Source: Bacteroidota bacterium (GTDB taxonomy: Bacteria > Bacteroidota > Bacteroidia > Cytophagales > UBA9547). Taken from it: 64,000 bases of DNA. The notes below the pieces were generated by a model. That model saw nothing but the letters and a program-made list of their open reading frames with translations. It was not told where the DNA came from and searched no databases. Location: assembly GCA_004293915.1 (NCBI GenBank), contig RDZG01000057.1, positions 1-64,000 of the forward strand, in the 5' to 3' direction. The translations under genes were made by a program, and so were the position numbers. This document shows, one piece after another, positions 15,321-55,173 of the stretch. The first letter of the stretch is position 1. Every line of letters begins with the position of its first letter.

Positions 15321-17138
15321 ATGCAAGAAAAAGGCACTCTTTCGATTCATACCGAAAACATATTTCCAATCATTAAAAAGTTTTTGTATTCAGATCACGA
15401 AATATTTTTAAGAGAATTGGTTTCAAATGCACAAGATGCTACCCAAAAGCTCAAAAAACTGGCTTCGATGGCAGAATATAAAGGCGAACTTGGCGACTTA
15501 AAACTAAAAGTTAGTATTGACGAAACCGCCAAAACATTGACAATCAGCGACCGAGGAATAGGACTTACTGCTGATGAAATGAAAAAATACATCAACCAAA
15601 TTGCTTTTTCGGGTGCTACCGAATTTGTTGAAAAATTTAAAGACAAACTCGACAATCCGCAAGATATTATCGGGAAATTTGGGTTAGGTTTTTACTCTGC
15701 TTTTATGGTTGCCGAACGTGTAGAAATCGTTTCGCTTTCGTATCAAGATGGTGCAAAAGCTGCCAAATGGAGCTGCACAGGCACAACAGATTACGAAATT
15801 ACAGAAACCGAAAAAGCCGAACGTGGCTCCGATGTAATACTTTATATTAACGAAGAAAGTAGTGAGTTTTTAGAAAAAGCCAGAATCGAATCTATTTTAA
15901 CAAAATATTGTAAATTCTTGCCTATCGAAATAGAATTTGATGGCAAAACGATAAATAACCCAAATCCAATTTGGACAAAAGCACCTGCCGAATTAAAAGA
16001 CGAAGATTATCTAAATTTCTATAAAGAATTATATCCTTTTACCGAAGACCCACTTTTTTGGATTCACTTAAATGTTGATTATCCGTTTAATCTTACGGGT
16101 GTTTTGTATTTTCCAAAAGTAAAACAAGAGTTTGAATTACAAAAAAACAAGATACAACTCTATAGCCGTCAGGTGTTTATCACAGACGAAGTTAAAGATG
16201 TAGTGCCAGAGTTTTTGATGTTGATGCACGGAGTGATTGATTCGCCAGATATTCCATTGAATGTATCGCGAAGCTATTTGCAAGCCGATGGAAATGTGAA
16301 AAAAATCAATTCACACATCACCAAAAAAGTGGCAGACAAACTTGGCGAACTTTTCAAAACAGATCGCACTGGCTTTGAACAAAAATGGGATAGCATTGGT
16401 ATTTTTGTTAAATACGGAATGATTACCGAAGACAAATTTTATGACAAAGCAAAAGATTATTGCTTGTTTAAAAACATTGATAATCAGTATTTTACGTTTG
16501 ATGAATACCGTGAAAAAATACAAGTTTTGCAAGAAGACAAAGATAAAAAAGTAGTTTATATTTATTCTAACGACCCTGGCAAACAAGATGCTTACATTCA
16601 GTCGGCACACAAAAAATCGTATGATGTTTTACGATTCGAAAGCCCAATTGATACCCATTTTGTTGGACATTTGGAACGCAAACTCGAAAACTCTACGTTC
16701 AAACGCATCGATTCTGATATAGCTGACAAATTAGTTGAAAAAGATATCAAAATGGAAAGCATTTTGACAGATGGACAAAAAGAAGAAATCAAAATGCTTT
16801 TCGACAAAGTAATTAACGATAAAAATTATACCGTAAATATCGAACCACTTTCGGCAGACGAAATGCCAGTTTCGGTTACTTTACCCGAATTTATGCGAAG
16901 AATGAAAGAAATGAGCATGGGTGGCGGAATGGCTTTTATGGGCAATATGCCTGATAATTATTCGGTTGTAGTAAATGCAAATCATCCTTTGATGCAAAAA
17001 ATAATTTCGGCATCATCGACTGAAAACAAAGAATTGGTTGCAAAATATGCTTTCGATTTGGGCTTATTGAGCCAAAATTTACTTTCTGGTTCGGCACTCA
17101 CTTCGTTTATAAACCGAAGCGTTGCTTTAGCGGTATAG
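15321..17138 (+). CDS. htpG: Molecular chaperone HtpG (Hsp90)
   Basis: 605 aa. N-terminal GHKL motifs ELVSNAQDA and GxGxG. Hsp90 middle and C-terminal domains. Confidence 0.9.
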   Translation: MQEKGTLSIHTENIFPIIKKFLYSDHEIFLRELVSNAQDATQKLKKLASMAEYKGELGDLKLKVSIDETAKTLTISDRGIGLTADEMKKYINQIAFSGATEFVEKFKDKLDNPQDIIGKFGLGFYSAFMVAERVEIVSLSYQDGAKAAKWSCTGTTDYEITETEKAERGSDVILYINEESSEFLEKARIESILTKYCKFLPIEIEFDGKTINNPNPIWTKAPAELKDEDYLNFYKELYPFTEDPLFWIHLNVDYPFNLTGVLYFPKVKQEFELQKNKIQLYSRQVFITDEVKDVVPEFLMLMHGVIDSPDIPLNVSRSYLQADGNVKKINSHITKKVADKLGELFKTDRTGFEQKWDSIGIFVKYGMITEDKFYDKAKDYCLFKNIDNQYFTFDEYREKIQVLQEDKDKKVVYIYSNDPGKQDAYIQSAHKKSYDVLRFESPIDTHFVGHLERKLENSTFKRIDSDIADKLVEKDIKMESILTDGQKEEIKMLFDKVINDKNYTVNIEPLSADEMPVSVTLPEFMRRMKEMSMGGGMAFMGNMPDNYSVVVNANHPLMQKIISASSTENKELVAKYAFDLGLLSQNLLSGSALTSFINRSVALAV

Positions 17139-17253
17139 TAAAGTCTAAAAAATAATTACAAATTCCAATTTAACATTTCCCCATTGGGGAAATAAGAAAG
17201 GGGTTTAATAAAATTATAATTGTAACTATTTTTTAGACACAATACAACTTATA

Positions 17254-18022: not shown

Positions 18023-18177
18023 TTTTGATTTTTTTGTGCAAAGATTTATTTTTTTCGATTGATAAAAAAATTAATGTCGATTTTAGTTTTTTGCCTTAGT
18101 GGACATTTAAGATTAAACCAAAAAATAATTGGTTTGATGTCATGCTTAAATTGTTAAAAAATTAAATCAGTTTATAT

Positions 18178-18591
18178 AAAAACCAAACTTACCCACTTCA
18201 AAACTAAGTTTATTAAGTTCAAAACCAAACTTATCCACTTCAAAACAAAGTTGAGTTACTTTAGAACTAAACTAACTAACTAAAAAACCAAGTTAAGTGA
18301 GTTAAAAACCGAGTTATGTTAGTTAAATACTAAACTTACCCACTTTAAAACTAAGTTGTGTAAGTTTAAAACTAAACTAACTAACTAAAAAACTAAGTTA
18401 AGTGAGTTAAAAACCAAACTGATTGACATAAAAACTGAGTTGTGTGAGTTAAATACTAAACTTACTCACTACAAAACTAAGTTGAGTTACTTTAGAACTA
18501 AACTAACTAACTAAAAAACCAAGTTGAGTGAGTTAAAAACCGAACTTACCCACATCAAAACCGAGTTTACTTCGTTTTGAAGTGGGTAAAA
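18178..18591. repeat. Tandem array of ~18 degenerate 21-bp units ending in a hairpin, bounded by a 16-bp inverted repeat
   Basis: Exact 21-bp register from 18178 (aaaaccaaacttacccacttc / aaaactaagtttattaagttc / ...). TTACCCACTTCAAAAC at 18188-18203 is the reverse complement of GTTTTGAAGTGGGTAA at 18575-18590. Confidence 0.8.
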
Positions 18592-18737
18592 GTAGTATAT
18601 ATGTAATTTATTTAGTGTTTTAGAATATATTTTATTGTTTTATGAATTTAATGATTCATAAAATTGATGCAGGTACTATGATTATACACATCTATATCAG
18701 GCAAAAAAAATTGAATCCTCCAAAAAATGTAAAAATA

Positions 18738-19154
18738 TCAACTATGCTTATCAACAAATTCTTTACAATAGGTTTTTATTAATTCCCTCACAGCCCTAAA
18801 TTGAGCCATAATCTCATCTTCTGAGCCTTTTGCTTTGGCAGGGTCGGGAAAATTATAATGAAACTTTTGGGCTTTAGTCGGGAAATAAGGGCAACGCTCT
18901 TTGGCATTATCGCAAACGGTAATCACAAAATCAAAATCTATATCCAAATATTCGTTTATATTATTTGATGTATGTTGCGAAATATCTATCCCATCTTCTT
19001 GCATAATTAGAATTGCTTTGGGATTAACACCATGTGTTTCCACGCCAGCACTATAAATTTTTACAGCCTTATTTTTAGTAAATTCAGCCAAATAGCCATG
19101 TGCAATCTGACTTCTACAACTGTTTCCTGTGCAAAGCACCAATATATTTTTCAT
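18738..19154 (-). CDS. arsC: Arsenate reductase (LMW-PTP family ArsC)
   Basis: 138 aa. CTGNSCRS P-loop. Conserved downstream Cys residues. Confidence 0.8.
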   Translation of the reverse strand: MKNILVLCTGNSCRSQIAHGYLAEFTKNKAVKIYSAGVETHGVNPKAILIMQEDGIDISQHTSNNINEYLDIDFDFVITVCDNAKERCPYFPTKAQKFHYNFPDPAKAKGSEDEIMAQFRAVRELIKTYCKEFVDKHS

Positions 19155-20817: not shown

Positions 20818-22154
20818 TCGACTATAAATCAGCTACATCTGTCGAAATAGTTTCAAAAATCGCTTCGGCACTTCGGATTAAGCTTATTGGAAAATTACTC
20901 ATCGAATGTTTTTCGCAAAACAAAGACGAATTAATTTTAGGCTTTGGCGATGCAAAAGAAGATTGTTGGATAAAAGCAAATTTTGATGTCGAAATTGGAC
21001 TTTTGAGCTTTCCAGAAATAGTGAGCAGAGCAAAAAAAAATTCGGTCGATATTTTTGCTATACTCAAAAACCTAAAAGTTTGCCATGTACATTATCATCA
21101 AAACGAACGCAGTTTTCATTTAGAATTTGAGCAAAATTATGATTTGATTTTCAAATTACATGGCAAGAACTCAAACCTAATTTTAGTCCAACATTTTAAG
21201 ACAATTGATGTTTTTAAACATAATTTACAAAACGATTTTAAAATTGATATTTTAAATTATGTACATGATAATCAAGTTGTTAAATACGAAAATATATTAG
21301 AAAATCTAACCAACTTTTATTCATCTTTTACAAAAGATTTTTATATAACAAAGCAAAAAAAACAAGCCTTTGTTGCTTTGCAAACCAAAATAAAATCAAT
21401 CGAAAAATACCTTTTTTCTGCCAAAACAAAACTTAATATTTTAGAAAATCATCTTTCGTATGATAAAATTGGACATATTTTGATGGCAAATTTGCATTTG
21501 AATATTTTAAATCAAAATGCAATAAAACTTATGGATTTTTATACCAATTTAGAAATCGAAATAAAACTAAAGCCATTGCTTTCGCTCCAAAAAAATGCAG
21601 AAATATATTATAGAAAAGCAAAAAACCAGAAAATCGAAGTTCAAAAAACCATAGAAACTATTGCTACAAAAGAAAAAGAATTAGTAAAACTCGAAATGTT
21701 ATTATCTGAAATTAATAACGCTGAGAACATAAAAGAAATTACACAAAAAACTACTAACGAAAAGCTGCTTGTTCCAAAGCAAAAAATAGCACAACAAACG
21801 CCATATCACGAACACGAACACGAAGGTTTTAAAATTTGGATTGGCAAAAATGCTCAACAAAACGATGTTTTAACCTTAAAATTTGCACACAAAGAAGACC
21901 TTTGGTTGCACGCCAAAGACAGTCCAGGTTCGCATGTGATTATAAAATTTCAGGCAGGAAAAACCATTCCCAAAACCGTGATTGAACAAGCCGCAAGTTG
22001 GGCAGCATTTTTTTCTAAACGCAAAAACGAAGGACTTGTGCCTGTGATAGTTACAAGCAAAAAATTTGTTCGCAAGCCAAAAGGTTTGCCTCCAGGTTCG
22101 GTGATTGTAGATAAAGAAGATGTGATTTTAGTAAAACCTCAAAAAACAGATTAA
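20802..22154 (+). CDS. NFACT-family (DUF814 / NFACT-R) protein, RqcH-like
   Basis: C-terminal DUF814-like block (FKIWIGKNAQQND...HAKDSPGSHVII...VPVIVTSKKFVRK). Overlaps the WD40 gene by 16 bp. Confidence 0.65.
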   Translation: MENQLIDYKSATSVEIVSKIASALRIKLIGKLLIECFSQNKDELILGFGDAKEDCWIKANFDVEIGLLSFPEIVSRAKKNSVDIFAILKNLKVCHVHYHQNERSFHLEFEQNYDLIFKLHGKNSNLILVQHFKTIDVFKHNLQNDFKIDILNYVHDNQVVKYENILENLTNFYSSFTKDFYITKQKKQAFVALQTKIKSIEKYLFSAKTKLNILENHLSYDKIGHILMANLHLNILNQNAIKLMDFYTNLEIEIKLKPLLSLQKNAEIYYRKAKNQKIEVQKTIETIATKEKELVKLEMLLSEINNAENIKEITQKTTNEKLLVPKQKIAQQTPYHEHEHEGFKIWIGKNAQQNDVLTLKFAHKEDLWLHAKDSPGSHVIIKFQAGKTIPKTVIEQAASWAAFFSKRKNEGLVPVIVTSKKFVRKPKGLPPGSVIVDKEDVILVKPQKTD

Positions 22155-22160
22155 GATAAA
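22116..22160. repeat. 45-bp direct repeat A (3' end of the NFACT gene), left boundary of the inserted element
   Basis: gaagatgtgattttagtaaaacctcaaaaaacagattaagataaa. Matches 24424-24468 with 3 substitutions. Confidence 0.8.
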
Positions 22161-22173
22161 AGTTTCATTTATA

Positions 22174-22205
22174 CCTAAAGGTTGGTGTTCTTCACAACAA
22201 AACTT
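22174..22205. repeat. Partial, degenerate copy of the two-hairpin structured repeat (hairpin-2 half)
   Basis: cctaaaggttggtgttcttcacaacaaaac versus the full copy cctaaaggttggtgttcttcaccaacaaaac at 24017. Confidence 0.6.
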
Positions 22206-22340
22206 TTAAAATCTGATGAAAATCCAACAAAAGCTGGAATTTGCAACACTATTTTAAATTATAAATATTCATCAGCAAAATATAATGAGTTGAATCAATC
22301 TGAATGGACATTTTTGTTTAGTTTATTTGAATAATATTTG

Positions 22341-22372
22341 ATTGATTTGTTGGTAAAAGAACACAAACAAAG
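22341..22372. repeat. Partial copy of the two-hairpin structured repeat, in inverse orientation
   Basis: tttgttggtaaaagaacacaaacaaaggc versus copy 4 tttgttggtaaagaacaccaaaggc at 54769. Confidence 0.5.
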
Positions 22373-22571
22373 GCGGAAAAGTTATTGTAATATGAAATTA
22401 TTGTATATTTATTCGTTAGAAACGAATGTCTCAACCGACCACGTTGAAAACGAGGTCGATTGGGGTAGAAAGAAATACATAAAAACTTAAGATTAACTCT
22501 ACCCAACAACGCAAGTATTTGCACAAAAATGAACATTATAAAATTTAATAAAAATTAATTAATAAAATATC

Positions 22572-23438
22572 ATGGCAAGAAAAAGAAGAAAAATAGGCTT
22601 TTATTATTTAACAGTTTCAATTGACAATTATGACAAACAAGTGGTTTTTAATCAAATTATAACATATATAAAAGATTTACCCAGAGCTTCTAAAAAATTT
22701 AATCTTGGCGATAATAAATTCTGTGTATTAGACTCTGTTACACCATATCTAAACGACAATAGATATAAAATTGTTTTTAAGAGTGCAACACATAGTTTTA
22801 GACCAAATTTGATACATCAACAAACTATAGACGAACGAGAAAATCCTAAACAAATTCAAGAGGGTGAAATAGAAAAAACGCATATATTAATAAAAGCAAT
22901 TAATGGAGATTTAGTTGTAATTTTCGAAAAACATTTAGGGGGGATTGGCATGAATCAATTGGTAAAATATTTAAATAATTTTACAAGTCAATTTCAAAGA
23001 GATCAAAATTTAGAGAGTTTTAGATTTGGACATGAAATAATAGTGAAAGATGATTTTTTGGAAGAAATAGCAAATCTAAATCGAGTAACTAGTGCGGAAA
23101 TATATGTGGATAAACAAATATTAGGTGGTGACGCATTAAATTTCTCAAACAGAACAAATCAGGTGAAACATGAAGTTGTTGTAAGTGTAAAAGCTAATAA
23201 TAGAAGTTCGATAAGTGAATTCGCAAATGACTTATATGCGAGTTTTAATGGAGGTGAAAATAGAATAAATAAAATTAGATTAGTCGGAAAAAATCACGAC
23301 AATAATGATGTTGTAATTAAAACTGACTTTATAGAAAGGCAGGAATATATAAATCCAGAAATGAATACAGAAACTGGTGAAATATCCACTCACGATATTT
23401 TCACAGAAATGGAAAATGTACTTTACAACTTTAATTAA
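22572..23438 (+). CDS. Hypothetical cytoplasmic protein (cargo gene 1 of the inserted cassette)
   Basis: 288 aa. No TM helix. No motif recognised. AT-rich codon use. Followed 1 nt later by a membrane-protein gene. Confidence 0.5.
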   Translation: MARKRRKIGFYYLTVSIDNYDKQVVFNQIITYIKDLPRASKKFNLGDNKFCVLDSVTPYLNDNRYKIVFKSATHSFRPNLIHQQTIDERENPKQIQEGEIEKTHILIKAINGDLVVIFEKHLGGIGMNQLVKYLNNFTSQFQRDQNLESFRFGHEIIVKDDFLEEIANLNRVTSAEIYVDKQILGGDALNFSNRTNQVKHEVVVSVKANNRSSISEFANDLYASFNGGENRINKIRLVGKNHDNNDVVIKTDFIERQEYINPEMNTETGEISTHDIFTEMENVLYNFN

Positions 23439-23439
23439 T

Positions 23440-23952
23440 ATGTATATCGAGTTCTTTCTTCTGATTTTTGATTATTTCAAAACAATTACTAAACGAATAT
23501 TCTTTTTTGAGATCGGTATTCCATTTCTATTAGTAGTTATATTATTCTTTTTTAATAAAAATGAAGATTTTGCTGCTTACAAACTTTTCAAAGAGAATTC
23601 GATAAATATTTTGGGTGTTCTTTTGGGCTTTTCAATTACAGTAATTACAATTTTTACAACTGGAAGTGGAAAAAGTATTGATGAAATAAAAATTTTAAAA
23701 ACAAGGTTTAAAATTGGAACTAACCCAATAACATTATATGAGCTTTTAATAATAAATTTTACTTATTCAGTAGTTTTAGAAGTTTTGGTTATAGTTGGAT
23801 GTTTAGTTATGCCATTATTTTCAAGCAAAGCATATTTTAATATACAACTTAAATTATGTTTATATCTAACATTAGTTTACTTGGTTATCCATATTCTTTT
23901 TTTGACTATGCGAAATTTGACAGATTTCTATTTAATAATCACAAAAAAATAA
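23440..23952 (+). CDS. Small integral membrane protein, ~4 TM (cargo gene 2)
   Basis: ATG at 23440 lies 1 nt after the cargo-1 stop. Four long hydrophobic segments. The ORF-track start at 23377 would overlap cargo 1 and is less likely. Confidence 0.5.
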   Translation: MYIEFFLLIFDYFKTITKRIFFFEIGIPFLLVVILFFFNKNEDFAAYKLFKENSINILGVLLGFSITVITIFTTGSGKSIDEIKILKTRFKIGTNPITLYELLIINFTYSVVLEVLVIVGCLVMPLFSSKAYFNIQLKLCLYLTLVYLVIHILFLTMRNLTDFYLIITKK

Positions 23953-24013: not shown

Positions 24014-24127
24014 CCTAAAGGTTGGTGTTCTTCACCAACAAAACTTACATTTAATAAATAATTTGCTATGTTCGTAGATTAGAAAGTTAATGCATGTTGG
24101 TCGAAAAGAAGACCAACATGGGCAGGA
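24014..24127. repeat. Full copy of the two-hairpin structured repeat (copy 2)
   Basis: gcctaaaggttggtgttcttcaccaacaaaac ... catgttggtcgaaaagaagaccaacatgggcagga. Reverse complement aligns along the full length with the copies at 53216-53313 and 54699-54792. Confidence 0.75.
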
Positions 24128-24372: not shown

Positions 24373-24423
24373 ATAAAAAAACCACTCGACATCGTTTATA
24401 GAAATCGAGGTCGAGTAGGTGGG

Positions 24424-24468
24424 GAAGATGTGATTTTAGTAAAACCCAAAAAAATAGATTAAGATAAA
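24424..24468. repeat. 45-bp direct repeat B (displaced NFACT 3'-end remnant), right boundary of the inserted element, overlapping the sprA stop
   Basis: gaagatgtgattttagtaaaacccaaaaaaatagattaagataaa. Reading-frame remnant EDVILVKPKKID* versus the intact EDVILVKPQKTD*. Confidence 0.8.
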
Positions 24469-33332: not shown

Positions 33333-34982
33333 ATGAGTAACCTTCTACGAAAAAAGAAAAGCCTAATGGCAAGCTTTTGCATTGCAGCATCGCAAATTGC
33401 ATTTGGACAAATTCAACCACCACCAACGTTGGCATTGCAACCTCAACCTACATTTCAACCAGCAGGTATGCCATTGTGGAATATTACTGGGCAAGTACGT
33501 ACTCGTACAGAATTTAGAGATGGTTTAGGAAATCCAGCTTATGTAGGGGCAGCTCCAAATATTTTCACATCGCAACGTACAAACTTAAATATTGGTTACC
33601 GTTGGGATAAATTATTGTTTGGTTTGGATTTGCGTGATGTGCGTGTTTGGGGACAAGATGCCGCAACTATTAACAACGCTGATGGAAACAAATTCTTTTT
33701 GCACCAAGCTTGGGGAGAGTTCATTATTGCTTCGGCTGCCGATACAAACTGCAAATTAAAAATTGATAATCTTTCATTAAAAGTTGGTCGCCAAGAGTTG
33801 ATTTATGACGATTCTCGTTTGCTTGGAAACTTAGATTGGTTACAACAAGGCAGAAGACACGATATGGCATTATTAAAAATGATGCACCGTGGGTATCAAG
33901 CCGATTTTGGTGTGGCTTTTAACCAAAATAACGACAATTTTGGAAATTATGGTACTACTTATGTGCCTGCAAATACTCCAGCAACTGCAGCTGCAGGAAC
34001 AATTCCAGTAAATGCATCAAATGCTGGTAGTGTTGGAACTTCTTGGCTAGGTCCTTTGGGTACAAATGGTGCCCAAAATATGTACAAATCAATGATGATG
34101 TTGTATTTGAGCAAAAAATTCAATCAAACTAAAATTTCTGTTTTGGCTTTGAATGATAACTTCCAGAAATATTCTATTACTGGTGTAAATGTTGCTGCTA
34201 ATACTGCTGTAAGAAATTATGGCAACTTTCCAGGTAGAGAAAATGGCAATGGTGTACATTCTCGATTCACTGCTGGTTTCCAAATATCAACTCAATTTGG
34301 AAATTCTACAGAAGGTTGGAAAACATTTATAAATGGTGGTGCATATTACCAATTTGGAAAATCTCCACAATCAAGAGCTAATGGAACTTCTCAAAATGTA
34401 GAAGCATCACACATATTTGGTTATGCAACATTCTCGAAAGATAAATGGTCGTTTGGTCCTGGCTTTGATATTCTTTCGGGCAACAAACAATCTAAACCTG
34501 ATAGTTATGACCACCGTTTTGATCCATTATATGGTACTCCGCACAGATGGTGGGGATATATGGATTATTTCTATGTTGGAACGGGTGGACCAGCAGCTGG
34601 TTTGCAAAACTTTTACTTGAAAGGTAAATATACACACAAATCGTTCTTTGTTTCTTTAGATGCACATGCATTCTTCAGTCAAAATTCGATGAAATATGTA
34701 TCAAAAACAGGTGCATTAACAGAAACCAAAACAGGTGTAATGAACTTAGGAACAGAGTTTGATTTGATTTGCAATGTGCATGTAAACAAATTTGTAAATC
34801 TTGAGGCTGGATATTCAGTATTCTTATCTACTGAAGCTACCGAGTTTGCAAAAAATGGCACACCAGGTGTAAGGGCTTGGAATGGCTCTCGCTCAACAGA
34901 CTCATTTAATCAATGGGGATATTTGATGATAAACATTCGTCCTGATTTCTTATTCCAAAAACCAGTTGCAATCAAAAATTAA
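33333..34982 (+). CDS. Outer-membrane porin-like protein (alginate-export-family-like), upstream of the nitrate-type ABC transporter
   Basis: 549 aa. Signal peptide. Beta-barrel character. C-terminal aromatic-rich strands. Confidence 0.5.
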   Translation: MSNLLRKKKSLMASFCIAASQIAFGQIQPPPTLALQPQPTFQPAGMPLWNITGQVRTRTEFRDGLGNPAYVGAAPNIFTSQRTNLNIGYRWDKLLFGLDLRDVRVWGQDAATINNADGNKFFLHQAWGEFIIASAADTNCKLKIDNLSLKVGRQELIYDDSRLLGNLDWLQQGRRHDMALLKMMHRGYQADFGVAFNQNNDNFGNYGTTYVPANTPATAAAGTIPVNASNAGSVGTSWLGPLGTNGAQNMYKSMMMLYLSKKFNQTKISVLALNDNFQKYSITGVNVAANTAVRNYGNFPGRENGNGVHSRFTAGFQISTQFGNSTEGWKTFINGGAYYQFGKSPQSRANGTSQNVEASHIFGYATFSKDKWSFGPGFDILSGNKQSKPDSYDHRFDPLYGTPHRWWGYMDYFYVGTGGPAAGLQNFYLKGKYTHKSFFVSLDAHAFFSQNSMKYVSKTGALTETKTGVMNLGTEFDLICNVHVNKFVNLEAGYSVFLSTEATEFAKNGTPGVRAWNGSRSTDSFNQWGYLMINIRPDFLFQKPVAIKN

Positions 34983-35135
34983 AAGCCCCCTAACCCCCGA
35001 AGGGGGAATTAAAAATTTAGTTTTAATTAAAGGGTAAATATTTATAATATGTAAACATTTGCTAGTTTAGATTCCCGACTGGCAAATTTCAAGAACTTAA
35101 AAACTCCCCCTTCGGGGGTCGGGGGGCTTTAAAAA
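34981..35135. repeat. GC-rich palindromic MITE/REP-like element (intergenic copy)
   Basis: AAAAGCCCCCTAACCCCCGAAGGGGGAATT ... AT-rich ~95-bp core ... AACTCCCCCTTCGGGGGTCGGGGGGCTTTAAAA. Termini are inverted repeats of each other. Confidence 0.7.
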
Positions 35136-35145
35136 CGTAATAAAA

Positions 35146-36351
35146 ATGAAAAGAATAATTTTAAAAGCAATTGGTATAGCAGCATCGCTATTTATTGCAA
35201 CTTCGCAAACTATGGGTCAAGACCCTATCAAATTAGGTTTTATTCCGCTCACAGATTGTGCACCACTTGTGGCTGCCAAAGAGCTTGGTTTGTTCAAAAA
35301 ATACGGTGTTGATGTGGTACTTTCTAAAGAAGCATCATGGGCAAACATCCGTGACAAAGTGTTGATTGGAGAGCTAGATGGTGCTCATTGTTTGTTCGGA
35401 ATGCCTTTTTCGGTTTATACAGGTGTAGGTGGAAAAGAGGGTTCTGAAATGAAAATTGCCATGGTGTTGAACAACAACGGACAAGGTATTACTTTATCTA
35501 GAGATTTTTGTGGCGAAGTAGGCTTCAGAGAAATTGCTAAGGTGTCTACTGCTGTTCAAACTGTGAAATCTAAAAAAGCAGATGTAACTTTTGCTATGAC
35601 ATTCCCAGGTGGCACACATGATATGTGGCTTCGTGTTTGGTTAGCTGCTTGTGGAATTAGCCAAAAATCGGTTGGTATTATCACAATTCCGCCTCCGCAA
35701 ATGGTTGCAAACATGCGTGTGGATAACATGGAAGGATATTGCGTTGGAGAGCCTTGGAATGGTGTTGCTGCTGCTCAAAATGTAGGTTTTACACACGTTG
35801 CTTCGCAAGATATCTGGAAACATCATCCTGAAAAAGCTTTAGTTGTAAACAAAGATTTTGCTGCCAAAAAACGTGAAGACCTTAAAAAAGTAATGAAAGC
35901 CATTATGGAAGCTTGTGTTTGGTTAGACAACATGGCAAATCGCAAAAAAGCAGCTGCATGGCTCACAAAACCTTATTATGTAAACGCTCAGTTGGCTGTA
36001 ATCGAGGCTCGTTTATTAGGTTCTAACGATTTAGGTTGCGATCTTGGTGTACAAAAATACAAAGACGACTATATGTTGTTTCATAATAAAGGATTTGTAA
36101 ACATGCCTCGCAAAGCACACGGTATTTGGTTTATGTCGCAATATGTACGCTTCGGTTATTTGAAAGAATTGCCAGCTGATTACAAAAAAATCGCAGATAA
36201 TCTTATCATGGACGACCTATATGAAGAAGTTGCTAAAGAAATGAATGTTGCTATGCAAACAGACGACATGAAACCTTTCTCTATTGCAATGGACAAAACT
36301 CCTTTCGATGCAAATAATCCAAGTGATTATTTGAGTAAATGCAAAAAATAA
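35146..36351 (+). CDS. ABC transporter substrate-binding protein, NrtA/CmpA (nitrate/bicarbonate, NitT/TauT) family
   Basis: 401 aa with a signal peptide. LGFIPLTDCAPLVAAKELGLFKKYGVDVVLSKEASWANIRDK closely follows the NrtA/CmpA N-terminal signature as remembered. Confidence 0.7.
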   Translation: MKRIILKAIGIAASLFIATSQTMGQDPIKLGFIPLTDCAPLVAAKELGLFKKYGVDVVLSKEASWANIRDKVLIGELDGAHCLFGMPFSVYTGVGGKEGSEMKIAMVLNNNGQGITLSRDFCGEVGFREIAKVSTAVQTVKSKKADVTFAMTFPGGTHDMWLRVWLAACGISQKSVGIITIPPPQMVANMRVDNMEGYCVGEPWNGVAAAQNVGFTHVASQDIWKHHPEKALVVNKDFAAKKREDLKKVMKAIMEACVWLDNMANRKKAAAWLTKPYYVNAQLAVIEARLLGSNDLGCDLGVQKYKDDYMLFHNKGFVNMPRKAHGIWFMSQYVRFGYLKELPADYKKIADNLIMDDLYEEVAKEMNVAMQTDDMKPFSIAMDKTPFDANNPSDYLSKCKK

Positions 36352-36355
36352 ACAT

Positions 36356-36509
36356 GAATGGAGAATTGAGAATGGAGAATTGAGAATGAATTTGTTTTAG
36401 AAATATTAAAATATATTTATTCTCGGTTTTTCATTCTCAATTCTCAATTAAAAATTCTCAATTCTCAATTAAAAATTCTCCATTCTCAATTCTCAATTCT
36501 CAATTAAGA
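36356..36509. repeat. Long imperfect inverted repeat built from heptamer repeats (GAGAATT/GAGAATG versus ATTCTCA), intercistronic
   Basis: gaatggagaattgagaatggagaattgagaatgaa ... 40-nt AT loop ... ttcattctcaattctcaatt aaaa attctcaattctcaatt aaaa attctccattctcaattctcaattctcaatt. Confidence 0.75.
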
Positions 36510-36513
36510 AACC

Positions 36514-37403: not shown

Positions 37404-37659
37404 TAAATATGCCTATTTTATAACTAACTATGACAGTTTTACAATAAAATATGCCTAATTTAAAAGTAAATTTGTGAGTTTTATAAGTAAATGTGTCAAT
37501 ATTATTATAAATGTTACGAATTTAATAACAAATGTTACAAATTTAGCATTGAATTTGCCAAATTTATAACTAAAATAGGCAAATTTAATACCAAATATCA
37601 CAAATTTAATGCTGAATTCGACATATTTAACTACAAAATAGGCATATTTTATTTAACTT
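37404..37659. repeat. Tandem array of ~12 degenerate 21-bp units between the permease and ATPase genes
   Basis: aatatgcctaatttaaaagta / aatttgtgagttttataagta / aatgttacgaatttaataaca / aatttgccaaatttataacta / aaataggcaaatttaatacca / ... The ORF-track 74-aa ORF here is a repeat artefact. Confidence 0.75.
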
Positions 37660-45422: not shown

Positions 45423-48083
45423 ATGCATAACCCTGAGAAAGAGCGAGTTTTAAGCACAAAAGGTAACCGAACATGGAAAACCTGGGGTCCGTATATGTCG
45501 GAGCGACAATGGGGAACTGTAAGAGAAGATTATAGCGAACACGGCTCTGCATGGGAATATTTTACACACGACATGGCTCGCTCACGTGCCTATCGTTGGG
45601 GTGAAGATGGCATATGTGGCTTGTGCGATAACAAACAATTTTTGTGTTTTGCTCCAGCCTTTTGGAACGAAAAAGATCCGTTTTTGAAAGAGCGTTTGTT
45701 CGGTTTAACTGGTAATCAAGGTAATCATGGCGAGGATGTGAAAGAAATGTACTACTATTTGGACAGTACACCTACACATTCTTACATGAAGATGTTGTAC
45801 AAATATCCGCATGCTGCGTTTCCATATCAAAAAATTATTGACGAAACAGCCAAAAGAACTCGCCTCGAACCCGAATATGAATTGATGGATACGGGAATTT
45901 TTGCAGAAAATAGATATTTTGATATTTTTATAGAATACGCAAAATTCGACCAAGATGACATGTGTATCAAAATCACGGCTGTAAATCGCGGACCCGAAAC
46001 AGCAACTTTAGATATTATTCCGCAACTTTGGTTCCGAAATTTTTGGAGCTATTTACCTGATGACCCATACAAACCTAGACTTAGTTCTGGTGTAAACACT
46101 ATATATGTAGAACATCGTGATTTAGGAAATTTTAATTTTTATTATGAAGGCAATCCTACACCGCTTTTTACAAATAACGAAACCAATTGGACAGCTGTAT
46201 ATAATGCTAAACCTAAAAAAGGTTTTTATAAAGACGGAATAAACGATTATATTGTTAATGGCAACAAAAAAGCTATTAACTCTGCCGATGAAGGCACAAA
46301 AGCCGGTTTGCAATACACAACTTTGATTGAATCTGGAGAAAGTTTTAGCATAAAACTTCGATTAAGTAAAAGTTATAATAAATTCCCTTTTCGTGATTTT
46401 GATGAAATATTCGATATGCGAAAAAACGAAGCTGATGTTTTTTATGCCGAAGTGCAATCAAAAGTTGATGATACAGATTTGAAAAACATTCAGCGTCAGG
46501 CATTTGCAGGGATGCTAACCTCAAAACAGTTTTTTTATTATGATGTAGATTTGTGGCTCAAAGGCGACCCAAAAACCTATCCTCCACGAGAGCGAAATTG
46601 GGGCAGAAACAACCAATGGCGACATTTGAATAATATGGACATTATTTCTATGCCCGATAAATGGGAATATCCATGGTATGCGGCTTGGGATTTGGCTTTT
46701 CATGTGATTGCTATTGCTGTTGTGGATCCTGATTTTGCAAAACGACAATTATTACTATTGTTAAGAGAGTGGTATATGCATCCTAACGGACAAATTCCAG
46801 CTTATGAATGGAATTTTTCGGATGTAAATCCTCCTGTACACGCTTGGGCTTGTATTCGCGTTTTTCAGATTGAACGAAATGTTTATGGTACCGAAGATTA
46901 TGATTTCTTAGAAAGAGTTTTTCATAAACTAATGCTTAATTTCACATGGTGGATTAACCAAAAAGACAGTGACGGAAAAAATATTTTTGAAGGTGGATTT
47001 TTGGGAATGGATAATATTGGGGTTTTCGACCGCAGCCGACCATTGCCTACTGGTGGAAAACTTGAGCAAGCCGATGGCACAAGTTGGATTGCCATGTATT
47101 CGCTAAATATGCTCAAAATTTCGCTGAATTTGGCCAAAAAGAATTCAGCTTATGAAGATACTGCTTCTAAATTTTTGGAGCATTTTATGTTTATTGCTGG
47201 TGCGATTGCCAATATTTCGGGGAGTGCGCTAAATCTTTGGAACGAAGAAGATGAGTTTTTCTATGATGTTTTGAATATGCACAATGGCGAATTTATTCCC
47301 ATCAAAATTCGCTCCATGGTAGGTTTGATTCCTATGTTTGCAGTAGAAACCATTGAACCCGATTTGCTCGAAAAACTTCCAAACTTCAAACGCAGAATGG
47401 AATGGTTTTTAAATTATAGACCACAATATGCCACTTTGATTTCGGCTTGGCGAGACCCAAGCAAAGGTGTACGTAGGCGTTTTTCGATTATCAAAGGCAG
47501 CCGTTTGAAAAAAGTATTGCGTACAATGCTCGATGAATCCGAATTTTTATCTGATTTTGGAATTCGTGCATTATCAAAATATCACAAAGAAAAGCCCTAT
47601 GTTTTTAAACACGAGGAACAAGAATATTCGGTTGCTTATAATCCTGGCGAATCAGATAGTTCGATGTTTGGCGGAAACTCAAACTGGCGAGGACCAATTT
47701 GGTTTCCTGTAAACTATATGATAATCGAATCGCTCAATAAATTTTATATGTATTATGGCTCTGATTACAAAATAGAATACCCAACTGGGTCAGGCAACTT
47801 GCTCGATTTGAGGCAAATAGCCGATGAGTTGCGTATGCGCATGATAAATTTATTTGTAAAAAACAGCAAAGGATTTAGACCGATTCACGGCAGTGATGAG
47901 CGTATTCAGACCGATCCCAATTTTAAAGATTATATTCATTTTTACGAATATATGCATGGAGATACTGGAGCAGGATTGGGTGCCAGCCACCAAACAGGCT
48001 GGACAGGTTTAGTTGCAGAAATGATTTATATGCACTATGAATACAAAAGCGAAGAAGGTGTTGTTGAGCAATTATTAGGCTAA
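45423..48083 (+). CDS. Glycoside hydrolase, GH63-like (MGH1/glucosidase family, (alpha/alpha)6 barrel)
   Basis: 886 aa. N-terminal WKTWGPYMSERQWGTVREDYS is a signature I recall for bacterial GH63-like glucosidases. Confidence 0.55.
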   Translation: MHNPEKERVLSTKGNRTWKTWGPYMSERQWGTVREDYSEHGSAWEYFTHDMARSRAYRWGEDGICGLCDNKQFLCFAPAFWNEKDPFLKERLFGLTGNQGNHGEDVKEMYYYLDSTPTHSYMKMLYKYPHAAFPYQKIIDETAKRTRLEPEYELMDTGIFAENRYFDIFIEYAKFDQDDMCIKITAVNRGPETATLDIIPQLWFRNFWSYLPDDPYKPRLSSGVNTIYVEHRDLGNFNFYYEGNPTPLFTNNETNWTAVYNAKPKKGFYKDGINDYIVNGNKKAINSADEGTKAGLQYTTLIESGESFSIKLRLSKSYNKFPFRDFDEIFDMRKNEADVFYAEVQSKVDDTDLKNIQRQAFAGMLTSKQFFYYDVDLWLKGDPKTYPPRERNWGRNNQWRHLNNMDIISMPDKWEYPWYAAWDLAFHVIAIAVVDPDFAKRQLLLLLREWYMHPNGQIPAYEWNFSDVNPPVHAWACIRVFQIERNVYGTEDYDFLERVFHKLMLNFTWWINQKDSDGKNIFEGGFLGMDNIGVFDRSRPLPTGGKLEQADGTSWIAMYSLNMLKISLNLAKKNSAYEDTASKFLEHFMFIAGAIANISGSALNLWNEEDEFFYDVLNMHNGEFIPIKIRSMVGLIPMFAVETIEPDLLEKLPNFKRRMEWFLNYRPQYATLISAWRDPSKGVRRRFSIIKGSRLKKVLRTMLDESEFLSDFGIRALSKYHKEKPYVFKHEEQEYSVAYNPGESDSSMFGGNSNWRGPIWFPVNYMIIESLNKFYMYYGSDYKIEYPTGSGNLLDLRQIADELRMRMINLFVKNSKGFRPIHGSDERIQTDPNFKDYIHFYEYMHGDTGAGLGASHQTGWTGLVAEMIYMHYEYKSEEGVVEQLLG

Positions 48084-48117
48084 ATTACTTTGCAGATTAT
48101 ATGATAAATTGTGATTT

Positions 48118-48568
48118 TTATAATTTTAAATCACAATTTACTTCAACTTCGTTGATTTCCACTCCTAGCTTTTTGTAAAATTGAATTGCTTTAGTATTCC
48201 AATTAGATACTTGCCATCTTACCTTTTTGCATTGGTGTTTTTCTTCCAATTTCAAACACTTTTTGCATTAAAGAAGAGCCTATACCTTGCCCTCTAAATG
48301 CTTCTACTACATACAAATCGTCTAAATATATAGATTTGCCAGTCCAAGAAAAATAGGCAAAATAATAACTTGCAAATCCTATAATTTTGTTTTCATGAAC
48401 TACAACCAATGCTTGAAAAAGCTCTTTATCGAGTACCATTTGCTGTGAAGTAATGACTACTTTTTCAGGAGTTTTCACAAACACTGCCAATTCCATAATC
48501 AACGCATGAATAGCTTCAAAATCGGATTCGGTGGCTTGGCGGATGTGGAATTGGATTGTTTTATTCAT
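48118..48568 (-). pseudogene. GNAT N-acetyltransferase interrupted by a frameshift in an A-run
   Basis: ORF-track product ends ...EIGRKTPMQKGKMASI*. The +1 frame continues RWQVSNWNTKAIQFYKKLGVEINEV..., the canonical GNAT C-terminus. The shift lies in agaaaaacacc around 48205-48225. Confidence 0.6.
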
Positions 48569-53080: not shown

Positions 53081-53215
53081 AAAAAAAGCTTAGGATATAA
53101 AAAAATGAGGAAGGTTACTTAAAATATTCGTGCAATGAAACTAAAATTCGTTTCAAACCGTACTATTTCCAATTTATAGGGTTTTTATTGTAGTAGCATT
53201 AACTAATTCTACAAA

Positions 53216-53313
53216 TCCTGCCCTTTTTGGAGTTCTTCTCCATCAAGCTACTATTGTTTCTTTACGGCTTTCAAATATTATGTTTGTTGGTGAAGAACAC
53301 CAACCTTTAGGCG
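53216..53313. repeat. Two-hairpin structured repeat, copy 3
   Basis: tcctgccc-tttttggagttcttctccatcaag-...-ttcaaatattatgtttgttggtgaagaacaccaacctttaggc. Confidence 0.75.
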
Positions 53314-53351
53314 TAAAGATATATATCTGATTTTTTTAGACGAATAGCTTA

Positions 53352-53567
53352 TTGAAAAGGGAGAGCCACTTTAGTGAGTACTACAGCCAGAAAACTGGGA
53401 GTAATCATATGGACAATGATTGTAAAAAAACACCTTACAAACCACCCACCGAATATCTATTCTTCGACCAAAAAAGAAAGCAAAAGGTAGTAGAAAGAAC
53501 AAAGAAAAATATTGCTAAATTTGCACTCAAACCCGAAGAGGTAGGTTTTATAACTAACTCATTATGA
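53352..53567 (+). CDS. Small ORF translationally coupled (ATGA overlap) to the downstream Abi-like gene
   Basis: 71 aa from a TTG start, or 53 aa from the ATG at 53409. Stop overlaps the next start. Uncertain whether it is coding. Confidence 0.25.
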   Translation: MKRESHFSEYYSQKTGSNHMDNDCKKTPYKPPTEYLFFDQKRKQKVVERTKKNIAKFALKPEEVGFITNSL

Positions 53568-54667
53568 TGATAAATAAAAAAGTTAGTCAGAATTTTAAAA
53601 GAAACAACAATATGAAAATGAACGATGTTTTAGGACTAGGTAAAATTTTACCAATTGACAAATTACTCGATATTTTATCTAGCGTTACTTCAAGACTTTC
53701 TAAACCGTATTTTGACAGAAAAGACATTGACACTAAAGCGTATGAAATAAAAAAATTAGCAGAGGCAAAGGCAGAAGAAATGAAAATTATTTCATTGGCA
53801 ATTAAAGAAAATTATTTACTGACTGGAGGAATTGAATACAAAGAAAATAGCATAGGTATAACTTCACCAAAAGAATTATCAATTTCAAAAACTGAAAATT
53901 CAATATTAATTAATCCTAGCTTAGAAGATAGAACAAACGATAGAATAATTTTACAACAGGCGAAAAAGCAATTGAACATTGAAAGTATTACTGCATACGC
54001 TGCCGAAGAACTTAAAAATGAGCCACCTGTAACGGACGAACCAGTAGATGAGGACTGGAAAACTAGATTTTTCAATATCGCTGAGGATATTTCAAGTGAT
54101 GAAATGCAAGCACTTTGGGGACGAATATTAGCTGGTGAAATAAAACAACCCAAATCGTATTCACTAAGAACATTAGAAGTATTGAAAAATTTATCTAAGG
54201 AAGAAGCAGAAGTTTTTACAAAATTTGCAAATATTAAAATTGTCTCTGTTGATACGAGTGTAATCTATAATCAAGATAATGGAGCTTTCCTTGAATCCGA
54301 ATTTGGTATTACATTTACTGATAGCTTACTATTGACTGAATTGGGCTTAATAGCAAGTGAAAGCAACTTAGAGCTAAGTCTGACTGAAACCAACCAAGTA
54401 GCGCAAACGAATGCCTTATTTATAGGTAATAAGGGTATAGTTTTGAACCGTGGTATAAATACTCCAAAACAACCTATTAATGTTCTAGTATTTACAAAAA
54501 CTGGGGCTGAATTATCAAAACTAATCGAGCCAATTCCTAATGAAAATTACATTAAAAAAATATGCTCAAGTTTTAAACATCCAAATGTAAAAATAGAATA
54601 TGGTGACATTACATTTTTACCAAATGGACAAATAATAATGAATAACAACGTTGAATATAATGAATAA
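53564..54667 (+). CDS. DUF2806 / Abi-alpha-like protein (putative abortive-infection family)
   Basis: Central block DWKTRFFNIAEDISSDEMQALWGRILAGEIKQP...LRTLEVLKNLSKEEAEVF matches, as I recall it, the conserved W..FF..S.EMQ.LW..LAGE signature of the DUF2806/Abi_alpha families. Confidence 0.5.
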   Translation: MMINKKVSQNFKRNNNMKMNDVLGLGKILPIDKLLDILSSVTSRLSKPYFDRKDIDTKAYEIKKLAEAKAEEMKIISLAIKENYLLTGGIEYKENSIGITSPKELSISKTENSILINPSLEDRTNDRIILQQAKKQLNIESITAYAAEELKNEPPVTDEPVDEDWKTRFFNIAEDISSDEMQALWGRILAGEIKQPKSYSLRTLEVLKNLSKEEAEVFTKFANIKIVSVDTSVIYNQDNGAFLESEFGITFTDSLLLTELGLIASESNLELSLTETNQVAQTNALFIGNKGIVLNRGINTPKQPINVLVFTKTGAELSKLIEPIPNENYIKKICSSFKHPNVKIEYGDITFLPNGQIIMNNNVEYNE

Positions 54668-54698
54668 AACTACTACTAACATTTCGCCTTTATTGGTA

Positions 54699-54792
54699 TC
54701 CTGCCCTTGTTGGAGTTCTTCTCCAACAAGCTTCGATTGTTTATCATTAAGGTTTTCAAATATTATGTTTGTTGGTAAAGAACACCAAAGGC
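54699..54792. repeat. Two-hairpin structured repeat, copy 4
   Basis: tcctgccc-ttgttggagttcttctccaacaag-...-ttcaaatattatgtttgttggtaaagaacaccaaaggc. Hairpin 1 is a perfect 10-bp stem. Confidence 0.75.
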
Positions 54793-55173
54793 AAAATTAT
54801 GGTAGTGATTTTTAAAAAAAAATTCGTTTATTTGGCATTGAAGAAGGTAAAAAAGAACCATCCATTGTTGATTTTACAAAAAATTATACTGAATTTAATA
54901 TTTCAAACGCATGAAAACAAAAAGCAATGCACTCGTTTTAGACCCAATTGAGTTGATAGGAAAAGTTAAAAAAAGGTATGAAAACGCTCCAATTTTCCCG
55001 AAAAAAATGGAAGAGGCTAAAGCAAACTTGCACCTATATCAAAAATTACATCAACAATATGAAAAATAAATAATATTTTTATAGCCATTTTGATTAAAAA
55101 CTAAACAAAACCGTTTTCAAATAAAAGAGCAAGACTAATTTAATAATCTTGCCCTTTTTATCAACTAAAAATT

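Follow-up and report, generated by a model that had tools for sequence, protein, structure and literature searches.

Do the structured repeats that bracket two sets of accessory genes on contig RDZG01000057.1 mark the exchange points of gene cassettes, or do they belong to a mobile family of their own? The contig comes from a Bacteroidota bacterium of the order Cytophagales (UBA9547; assembly GCA_004293915.1), and the stretch analysed here, positions 1 to 64,000 of its forward strand (referred to as the window; G+C content 32.7%), carries three full copies of a ~100-bp element composed of two hairpins. A preliminary description had weighed two identities for this element, integron attC sites as in clusters of attC sites lacking integron integrases (CALIN), and repetitive extragenic palindromes (REPs) or bacterial interspersed mosaic elements (BIMEs), and had proposed that its copies delimit swappable open reading frames (ORFs). 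Our analysis indicates that the two-hairpin repeats are very probably REPs and that the inverted doublets are REPINs (REP doublets forming hairpins) of the lineage of TnpA_REP subclass 2.6, also called Bertels group 5. REPINs are characterised in two reports as inverted REP doublets mobilised by REP-associated tyrosine transposases, RAYTs (PMC3337134; PMC3116915). The REP/BIME option is borne out by a conserved foot, by doublets with their feet outward, by intact RAYT genes between inverted copies elsewhere and by the stub of a RAYT gene in the window.

All three full copies proposed earlier were recovered (REPINs A, B and C, Table 1). With a profile of the hairpin, exactly eight units forming four inverted pairs and nothing else credible were found in the 64-kb window, all of them intergenic, and the 21-mer of hairpin 2 gave five matches at up to three mismatches compared with none in 100 shuffles of the window. 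Rfam searches at gathering and relaxed thresholds returned noise only (plant miRNA hairpins on REPIN B). Two further sites had been taken for degenerate partial copies; the sites are real, but they are single REPs flanking a transposase pseudogene rather than fragments of doublets. The two-hairpin architecture likewise stands, with the correction that TCCTGCCC and AGGC, previously listed as separate motifs, represent one GGC foot seen on opposite strands: TCCTGCCC, the foot of the variant REP in REPIN A, is the reverse complement of GGGCAGGA and was found in the window at the three full copies only. Hairpin 2 is indeed close to the inverted complement of hairpin 1. On folding (z -2.9 to -4.4), REPINs B and C each formed two local hairpins and REPIN A formed one long hairpin because its hairpins 1 and 2 are mutually reverse complementary. 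Hairpin 1 had been said to differ between copies by paired changes only. This is true of C (ATGTTGGTC/GACCAACAT) against B (TTGTTGGAG/CTCCAACAA), hairpin 2 reading TTGTTGGTG/CACCAACAA, but not of A, whose hairpin 1 (TTTTTGGAG...CTCCATCAA) carries two uncompensated substitutions that damage the stem; the stem tops read ..GGAG/CTCC.. in copies A and B and ..GGTG/CACC.. in hairpin 2. Altogether the stems are damaged in four of the eight units, namely hairpin 1 of A, hairpin 2 of B (a G>A change together with a shortened 3' arm) and both single units.

The distribution of the unit was investigated by an exact scan of one genome per species with the conserved 20-mer TTGTTGGTRAAGAACACCAA; the source genome is not among the matches listed. 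The 20-mer was present in at least 119 stretches, all from Bacteroidota except for a few metagenome-assembled genomes (MAGs) labelled Ignavibacteriae, Bifidobacterium and Asaia. Among the matches listed were Cytophagales (Chryseolinea, Ohtaekwangia, Roseivirga and Cyclobacteriaceae), Chitinophagales (Flavipsychrobacter, Segetibacter, Edaphocola and Chitinophaga) and, from the Sphingobacteriales, Pedobacter. In an alignment of 165 instances g.TTGTTGGTG-AAGAA-CACCAACAA-n-GGC-r-r was conserved and nothing beyond it, the GGC foot standing 1 nt 3' of the stem in 84-95% of the instances. Since conservation is confined to hairpin and foot, the unit is a hairpin of ~30 nt with a GGC foot, i.e. a stem of 9-10 bp (n-TTGTTGGTG / CACCAACAA-n'), the 5-nt loop AAGAA and GGC(R)(R). 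The 119 loci among the matches listed contained 227 units and 37 pairs of neighbours with their feet outward, 25 at distances of 27-238 nt and 12 at 570-629 nt; neither units nor such pairs were found in 1.16 Mb of unselected Bacteroidota DNA (alanyl-tRNA synthetase, AlaRS, loci). Two units with feet outward and 30-240 nt apart constitute a REPIN, and a spacer of ~600 nt holding a RAYT gene makes the pair a REPtron. The entire doublet of REPIN C, spacer included, is 89% identical to L117:165-272 and 79% identical to L081:7407-7509 (such designations refer to fetched loci), unlinked sites with unrelated flanks in another Cytophagales MAG at which the variant hairpin is kept. Recurrence with the spacer fits the doublet being copied as a unit. 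We also observed that the 23-nt REP palindrome is near-invariant, among the matches listed, across Cytophagales, Chitinophagales, Sphingobacteriales and one Ignavibacteriae-labelled MAG.

The link to a transposase comes from the wider pairs. The 12 inverted pairs at 570-629 nt enclose HUH/Y1 ORFs of ~170 aa, and a RAYT-like ORF adjoins a REP in 22 of the 119 8-kb loci, both counts being among the matches listed. These ORFs carry the motifs NH[IFM]H and YIHxNP and match Pfam Y1_Tnp (PF01797) as well as NCBIfam NF047646, 'REP-associated tyrosine transposase' (74-84 bits, cut-off 80); no sequence relative of the RAYT was found in the PDB. In the six-frame translation of the window a profile built from 11 intact RAYTs gave a single match (E 7e-10), and tblastn with three RAYT proteins hit the same single site, which lies between the two single REPs (RAYT pseudogene, Table 1). 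There the Y motif YIHxNP survives in the decayed form KSDENP, and the HUH half is missing; this stub had no match in Pfam, NCBIfam or PADLOC and was identified via its relatives in the fetched loci. The position of the RAYT stub between two single REPs indicates that 22174-22377 is a collapsed REP-RAYT-REP unit. Derivation of the REPIN spacers from the RAYT 3' end was considered and rejected (similarity not significant, p 0.66). RAYTs adjacent to REPs are mutually only 41-69% identical, so that the repeat is more conserved than its own transposase.

Covariation in the stem was determined on 127 distinct units with the structure ..((((((((((.....)))))))))).... as reference. In this set 98.4% of the cells were paired compared with 92.9% in shuffles, double changes were seen at four pairs, and the outermost (base) pair occurred as all four Watson-Crick types (CG 49, UA 34, GC 27 and AU 5). 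None of 500 shuffles reached any of the observed measures, and in a control in which the pairing partner was slid the signal collapsed. The earlier proposal of selection on structure has therefore survived the inclusion of more copies, compensation holding across the 127 units.

The family itself is not new. TnpA_REP subclass 2.6 is specific to Bacteroidetes, comprises proteins of ~179 aa with NH[LIV]H and YIH[QN]NP motifs, and its RAYTs are bordered by secondary structures termed atypical, lacking GTAG (Quentin et al., 2018; PMC6006769). For the subclass 2.6 member AEI49282.1 of Runella slithyformis, Table S1 of that study gives TGATGCC-G-TTGTTGGTG-TTAT-CACCAACAA-CC, and since stem and foot are thus already tabulated the preliminary view that the element was undescribed for this lineage had to be dropped. 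What is new here is a further host for a known family, with lineage-specific variants. By analogy with E. coli TnpA_REP and IS200/IS605, the HUH/Y1 enzyme would bind the folded hairpin on single-stranded DNA, would use the foot both as a guide and as the signal for cleavage, and would be expected to mobilise doublets without target-site duplication.

Several points weigh against the assignment to REPs and REPINs of subclass 2.6. Only eight units were seen in this organism, within the 64-kb window, and no intact RAYT is present within that window. The loci used for covariation were picked by an exact 20-mer and most stem columns are fixed; the inner stem was hence hardly free to vary, and it is mainly the outermost pair, together with a small number of double changes, that produces the signal. 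The foot is a 3' GGC (5' GCC on the other strand) and not GTAG, so that the E. coli mechanism is carried over by inference, and to our knowledge RAYTs of this lineage have never been assayed for cleavage or mobilisation. The REPs of the window look like relics because the local RAYT is a stub and four of the eight hairpins carry uncompensated stem mutations.

Table 1. Repeat units, transposase remnants and accessory genes at the two loci of the window.
Feature	Position	Strand	Remarks
REPIN A	53216..53313	+	variant REP in minus orientation, 36-nt spacer, canonical REP TTGTTGGTGAAGAACACCAAC with displaced foot CTTTAGGC
REPIN B	54699..54792	+	both halves 91% identical to those of A; intact hairpin 1 (TTGTTGGAG/CTCCAACAA)
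REPIN C	24014..24127	-	spacer unlike that of A and B; hairpin 1 is ATGTTGGTC-TTCTTTTC-GACCAACAT
Left REP of decayed REPtron	22174..22205	-	1-nt deletion in 5' arm
Right REP of decayed REPtron	22341..22377	+	insertion and substitution in stem; canonical foot AAAGGCGG
RAYT pseudogene	22179..22331	+	C-terminal ~43 residues, profile positions 125-167 of 171
Probable remnant of another REP	54683..54698	-	reverse complement ACCAATAAAGGCGAAA corresponds to 3' arm and foot; weak profile match, E 15
Ex-integron cassette	53581..54681	+	leader GTTAGTCAGAATTTTAAAAG, DUF2806 gene, first 14 nt of attC (R'' ACTACTACTAACA)
IS110-family transposase C-terminal remnant	53356..53567	+	~70 aa, one frameshift in an A-run
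Two-gene accessory module	22572..23952	+	288 aa and ~170-aa membrane protein called from 23440

Hairpins of this kind might instead act primarily as transcription terminators or mRNA-stabilising stem-loops that are kept for host expression. They are extragenic and stable and often follow genes, as REPIN B follows the DUF2806 gene and REPIN C the 170-aa gene, and REPs of E. coli are known to have such secondary effects. A terminator scan, however, detected a T-rich tail in only one of the eight units, and the hairpins are found in both orientations, in outward-facing pairs and flanking RAYT genes, with identical doublets, spacer included, at unrelated loci. A primary role in host expression is for these reasons quite unlikely.

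It is highly improbable that the repeats are integron attC sites (CALIN) at which an integron integrase exchanged the flanked genes as cassettes. The flanked genes (the cargo) are of the accessory type typical of cassettes, true cassette arrays contain homologues of both cargo units, and a long imperfect hairpin can be formed by copy A. A covariance model (R1), home-made from five attC sites of cargo homologues, recovered held-out attC sites at 27 and 42 bits but matched no REPIN at E<=10 over the whole window, the best score in a local scan being 7.6 bits. The polarity is also wrong, a REP reading GTTGG...CCAAC within 23 nt and an attC 5' ...AAC / 3' GTT... at a distance of 60-140 nt; the true attC sites of the cargo homologues read CTAAC...GTTAG, whereas REPs are devoid of RYYYAAC...GTTRRRY ends and REPINs end in (Y)GCC-n-TTGTTGG ... 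CCAACAA-n-GGC(R). Furthermore, the same hairpins flank RAYT genes, and REPs were present at none of nine loci with cargo homologues, while unrelated attC sites were found in six of the eight loci scanned with the attC profile. Without R boxes, without a match to the model and without travelling along with the cargo, the repeats do not qualify for the attC/CALIN option, nor do they delimit swappable ORFs as had been proposed: the REPs do not serve as recombination sites for the cargo. No tyrosine recombinase was detected by Pfam among the ORFs adjoining the two loci, which were the ORFs scanned. The attC model also produced a match in the window at 48042-48155 (19.9 bits) and one at 22076-22192 (19.7 bits), the latter lacking R boxes and judged a chance match. 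An origin of the elements as miniature inverted-repeat transposable elements (MITEs) of a DDE-type insertion sequence (IS), with the hairpins as terminal inverted repeats, would suit the length of ~100 bp, the inverted ends and the dispersal, but is scarcely plausible given that no target-site duplication exists at A (ctacaaa / gtaaaga), B (ttggta / aaaatt) or C (flanks read), that long versions with the same ends encode a Y1/HUH RAYT and not a DDE transposase, and that each end forms a perfect palindrome and has evolved in a compensatory fashion, properties for which DDE terminal inverted repeats have no need.

With the repeats assigned to the REP family, the cargo can be considered on its own. 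The gene families of both cargo units occur elsewhere as bona fide integron cassettes, and the first 14 nt of the attC are still present in the DUF2806 unit. The DUF2806 gene (53612-54667, the correct start being 53612) is Abi-alpha-like, and DUF2806 is the domain found in 'Belisama', which is a defence cassette from the superintegron of Vibrio cholerae (bioRxiv 10.1101/2024.07.02.601686). Relatives were found in seven other contigs at 72-95% nucleotide identity, in one of which (L201) the gene follows a ThsB-TIR/SLATT cassette. Homology ends in every case at ~53573-53582 on the left (at GTTAG) and at 54681-54682 on the right, just past CTAACA. In the relatives the gene is followed by TAA-AACTACTGCTAAC-A-GCGGTTTGGCAAAAGTGGCGG ... 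CCGCCACCTTCGCCAAGCC...-GTTAGGT. The 5' end of the cassette, TTAGCAGTA, is complementary to its own R'', the sites of the relatives fold into one long imperfect hairpin with R and L boxes paired, and compensatory changes are present at 11 of 24 pairs; together these properties identify the sites as attC. Past the DUF2806 stop codon in the window, only the R'' box ACTACTACTAACA of the attC is left, followed by TTTCGCCTTTATTGGT and then by REPIN B. Read in reverse complement, TTTCGCCTTTATTGGT gives the 3' arm and foot of a REP, and it occupies the place of the attC body.

On the other side of the DUF2806 gene, the remnant of an IS110-family transposase has its stop codon 13 nt before the cassette leader GTTAGTCAG. 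Over 45 aa it shares 40% identity with the C-terminal end of an intact IS110-family protein encoded in L107, and this relative in the fetched loci permitted its identification; Pfam, NCBIfam and PADLOC gave no match to it. Members of IS110/IS1111 are known to target attC sites (ISKpn4, ISPst6) or REPs (ISPa11, IS621, ISPpu10) (PMC11187229). In keeping with such elements, the stub sits exactly between a REPIN and the 5' boundary of the ex-cassette (GTTAG), the expected end of the upstream attC; unlike intact IS110/IS1111 members, ~70 codons survive and neither the IS ends nor the guide-RNA region are recognisable. In L107:2929-5138 (a Cyclobacteriaceae MAG), an intact IS110-family transposase gene stands back to back with an intact REP-flanked RAYT gene, a pairing of element types that matches the two stubs of the window (IS110 and RAYT). 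An exact 11-mer, AAAATTCGTTT, was noticed at 53142-53152, 63 nt to the left of REPIN A, and at 54818-54828, 26 nt to the right of REPIN B (p about 0.01); the match could reflect a duplication on either side of the entire block, or chance.

The second cargo unit is the two-gene module between the decayed REPtron and REPIN C. In its relatives the 288-aa gene is always followed by the ~170-aa gene. The L209 copy of the pair has the upstream cassette's attC in front of it and the beginning of its own attC behind it, in an array with two further attC sites, and the L210 copy adjoins a type I restriction-modification (R-M) system. Pfam, NCBIfam and PADLOC gave no match to the 288-aa gene or the 191-aa gene. 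Arrays of defence-like cassettes were observed in contigs of uncultured bacteria (L201:206-2927, L209:1-2602, L202:10001-12463 and L210:3523-10380), with ThsB-TIR and SLATT, DUF2806, and a DUF4747-like gene with a membrane protein as contents. The type I R-M system beside the DUF4747-like pair in L210 suggests that the two genes make up a so far uncharacterised defence module. The locus in the window is moreover bracketed by a 54-nt direct repeat (22107-22160 and 24415-24468, 87% identical) that corresponds to the last ~18 codons and stop codon of NFACT; the 2.25-kb block in between contains the RAYT stub, the 288-aa/170-aa module and REPIN C. The two copies are homologous over these 54 nt only, which resembles an att site, yet a recombinase is absent. 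A third copy of the NFACT 3' end was not supported by nhmmer, and only a 14-nt core of a hairpin-associated motif proved to be repeated. This motif, GAAA(A/T)CGAGGTCGA, occurs at 22445-22458, upstream of the 288-aa gene, and at 24399-24412, just before the second copy of the NFACT 3' end (0 of 2000 shuffles).

In summary of the two loci, the cargo consists of stranded, worn-down ex-cassettes in two patches of dispensable DNA, with REP material at their eroded edges. The bracketing would most likely have come about by insertion of REPINs into non-essential DNA, or by REP-associated deletion or recombination within it. No close strain was present in the collections, the best AlaRS relative in JGI metagenomes being 64% identical, and the sole other occurrence of the organism was a fragmented Logan assembly of SRR7244345. 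Two further proposals are doubtful but follow from the observations above. One is that the REP-RAYT system might be unusually old, co-evolve tightly or have been domesticated by the host, as opposed to the species-specific REPs of Proteobacteria, because the REP core is near-invariant over at least three orders of Bacteroidota while the RAYTs are 41-69% identical; the other is that REPINs might preferentially invade or recombine at hairpin sites such as attC and thereby 'fossilise' cassettes outside integrons, because the attC of the DUF2806 cassette is cut exactly at REP material.

Other repeats in the window were noted in passing. Within purL (ORF 3691-6117, minus strand), three GC-rich palindromic units (AAAAGCCCCCTAACCCCCGAAGGGGG-like) at 4861-5001 lie in frame in the FGAM synthase gene and add about 41-45 codons (...GKSPLTPEGGTAGASKAPQPPKGELL...) that are absent from the 65% identical homologue in L084, an insertion resembling the Rickettsia palindromic elements in coding genes. 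The same GC-rich family recurs at 34978-35010 and 35093-35133, intergenic between ORFs 33333-34982 and 35146-36351, with one arm of these copies complementary to the purL copy at 26 of 26 positions. An element of ~105 nt at 17134-17243 with 19-bp terminal inverted repeats (GTCTAAAAAATAATTACAA...TTGTAACTATTTTTTAGAC) is 83% identical to L081:1577-1683, which has unrelated flanks in the Cytophagales MAG REAG01; that genome also shares REPIN C, and the element represents a second MITE-like family common to the window and REAG01. At 18113-18627, upstream of ORF 18738-19154, an intergenic array of ~500 nt with a 21-nt period comprises at least 14 degenerate copies. At 36356-36510 and 37405-37509 there are dense GAGAAT/ATTCTC heptamer arrays in inverted orientation between two genes, and 21/42-nt direct repeats just upstream of ORF 37491.

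From an uncultured Bacteroidota genome of low G+C content, the analysis provides a consensus (stem, loop and GGC foot) and covariation support for the REP family of the poorly studied RAYT subclass 2.6, a repeat family that had hitherto appeared in a supplementary table only, and it removes the tempting but wrong reading of a new integron-like system. In uncultured bacteria, a Belisama-type DUF2806 defence gene and a DUF4747-like two-gene module are in circulation as integron cassettes, and such cassettes can be left behind outside integrons, their attC eroded. REPs also have a practical consequence in that they break short-read assemblies, Logan contigs of the same organism ending inside REPs.

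Compared with integron attC sites and CALIN, the repeats share the form of structured imperfect palindromes of 60-140 nt next to accessory genes, and their neighbours here are ex-cassettes; they differ in having no R''/R' boxes, in being linked to a Y1 transposase instead of IntI and in being unlinked to the cargo elsewhere. With the REP/BIME/REPIN systems of E. coli and Pseudomonas (Bertels & Rainey 2011, PMC3116915; PMC3337134), they have in common a short palindrome with a foot, spaced inverted doublets, extragenic sites, a RAYT flanked by inverted REPs and compensatory evolution of the stem. The foot in those systems is GTAG in contrast to GGC/GCC here, the RAYT clade is 2.2/2.5 as against 2.6, and in the present family the REP core is conserved across orders of the phylum with RAYTs at 41-69% identity. 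The subclass 2.6 REPtron of Runella shares the stem TTGTTGGTG/CACCAACAA, the GCC/GGC foot, RAYTs of ~170-180 aa with NH[LIV/F/M]H and YIHxNP, and the lack of GTAG. Its REP loop is TTAT instead of the AAGAA of the window family, whose local RAYT is a pseudogene and whose variants in this lineage include the stem tops AG/CT and TC/GA, an 8-nt loop and the displaced foot CTTTAGGC.

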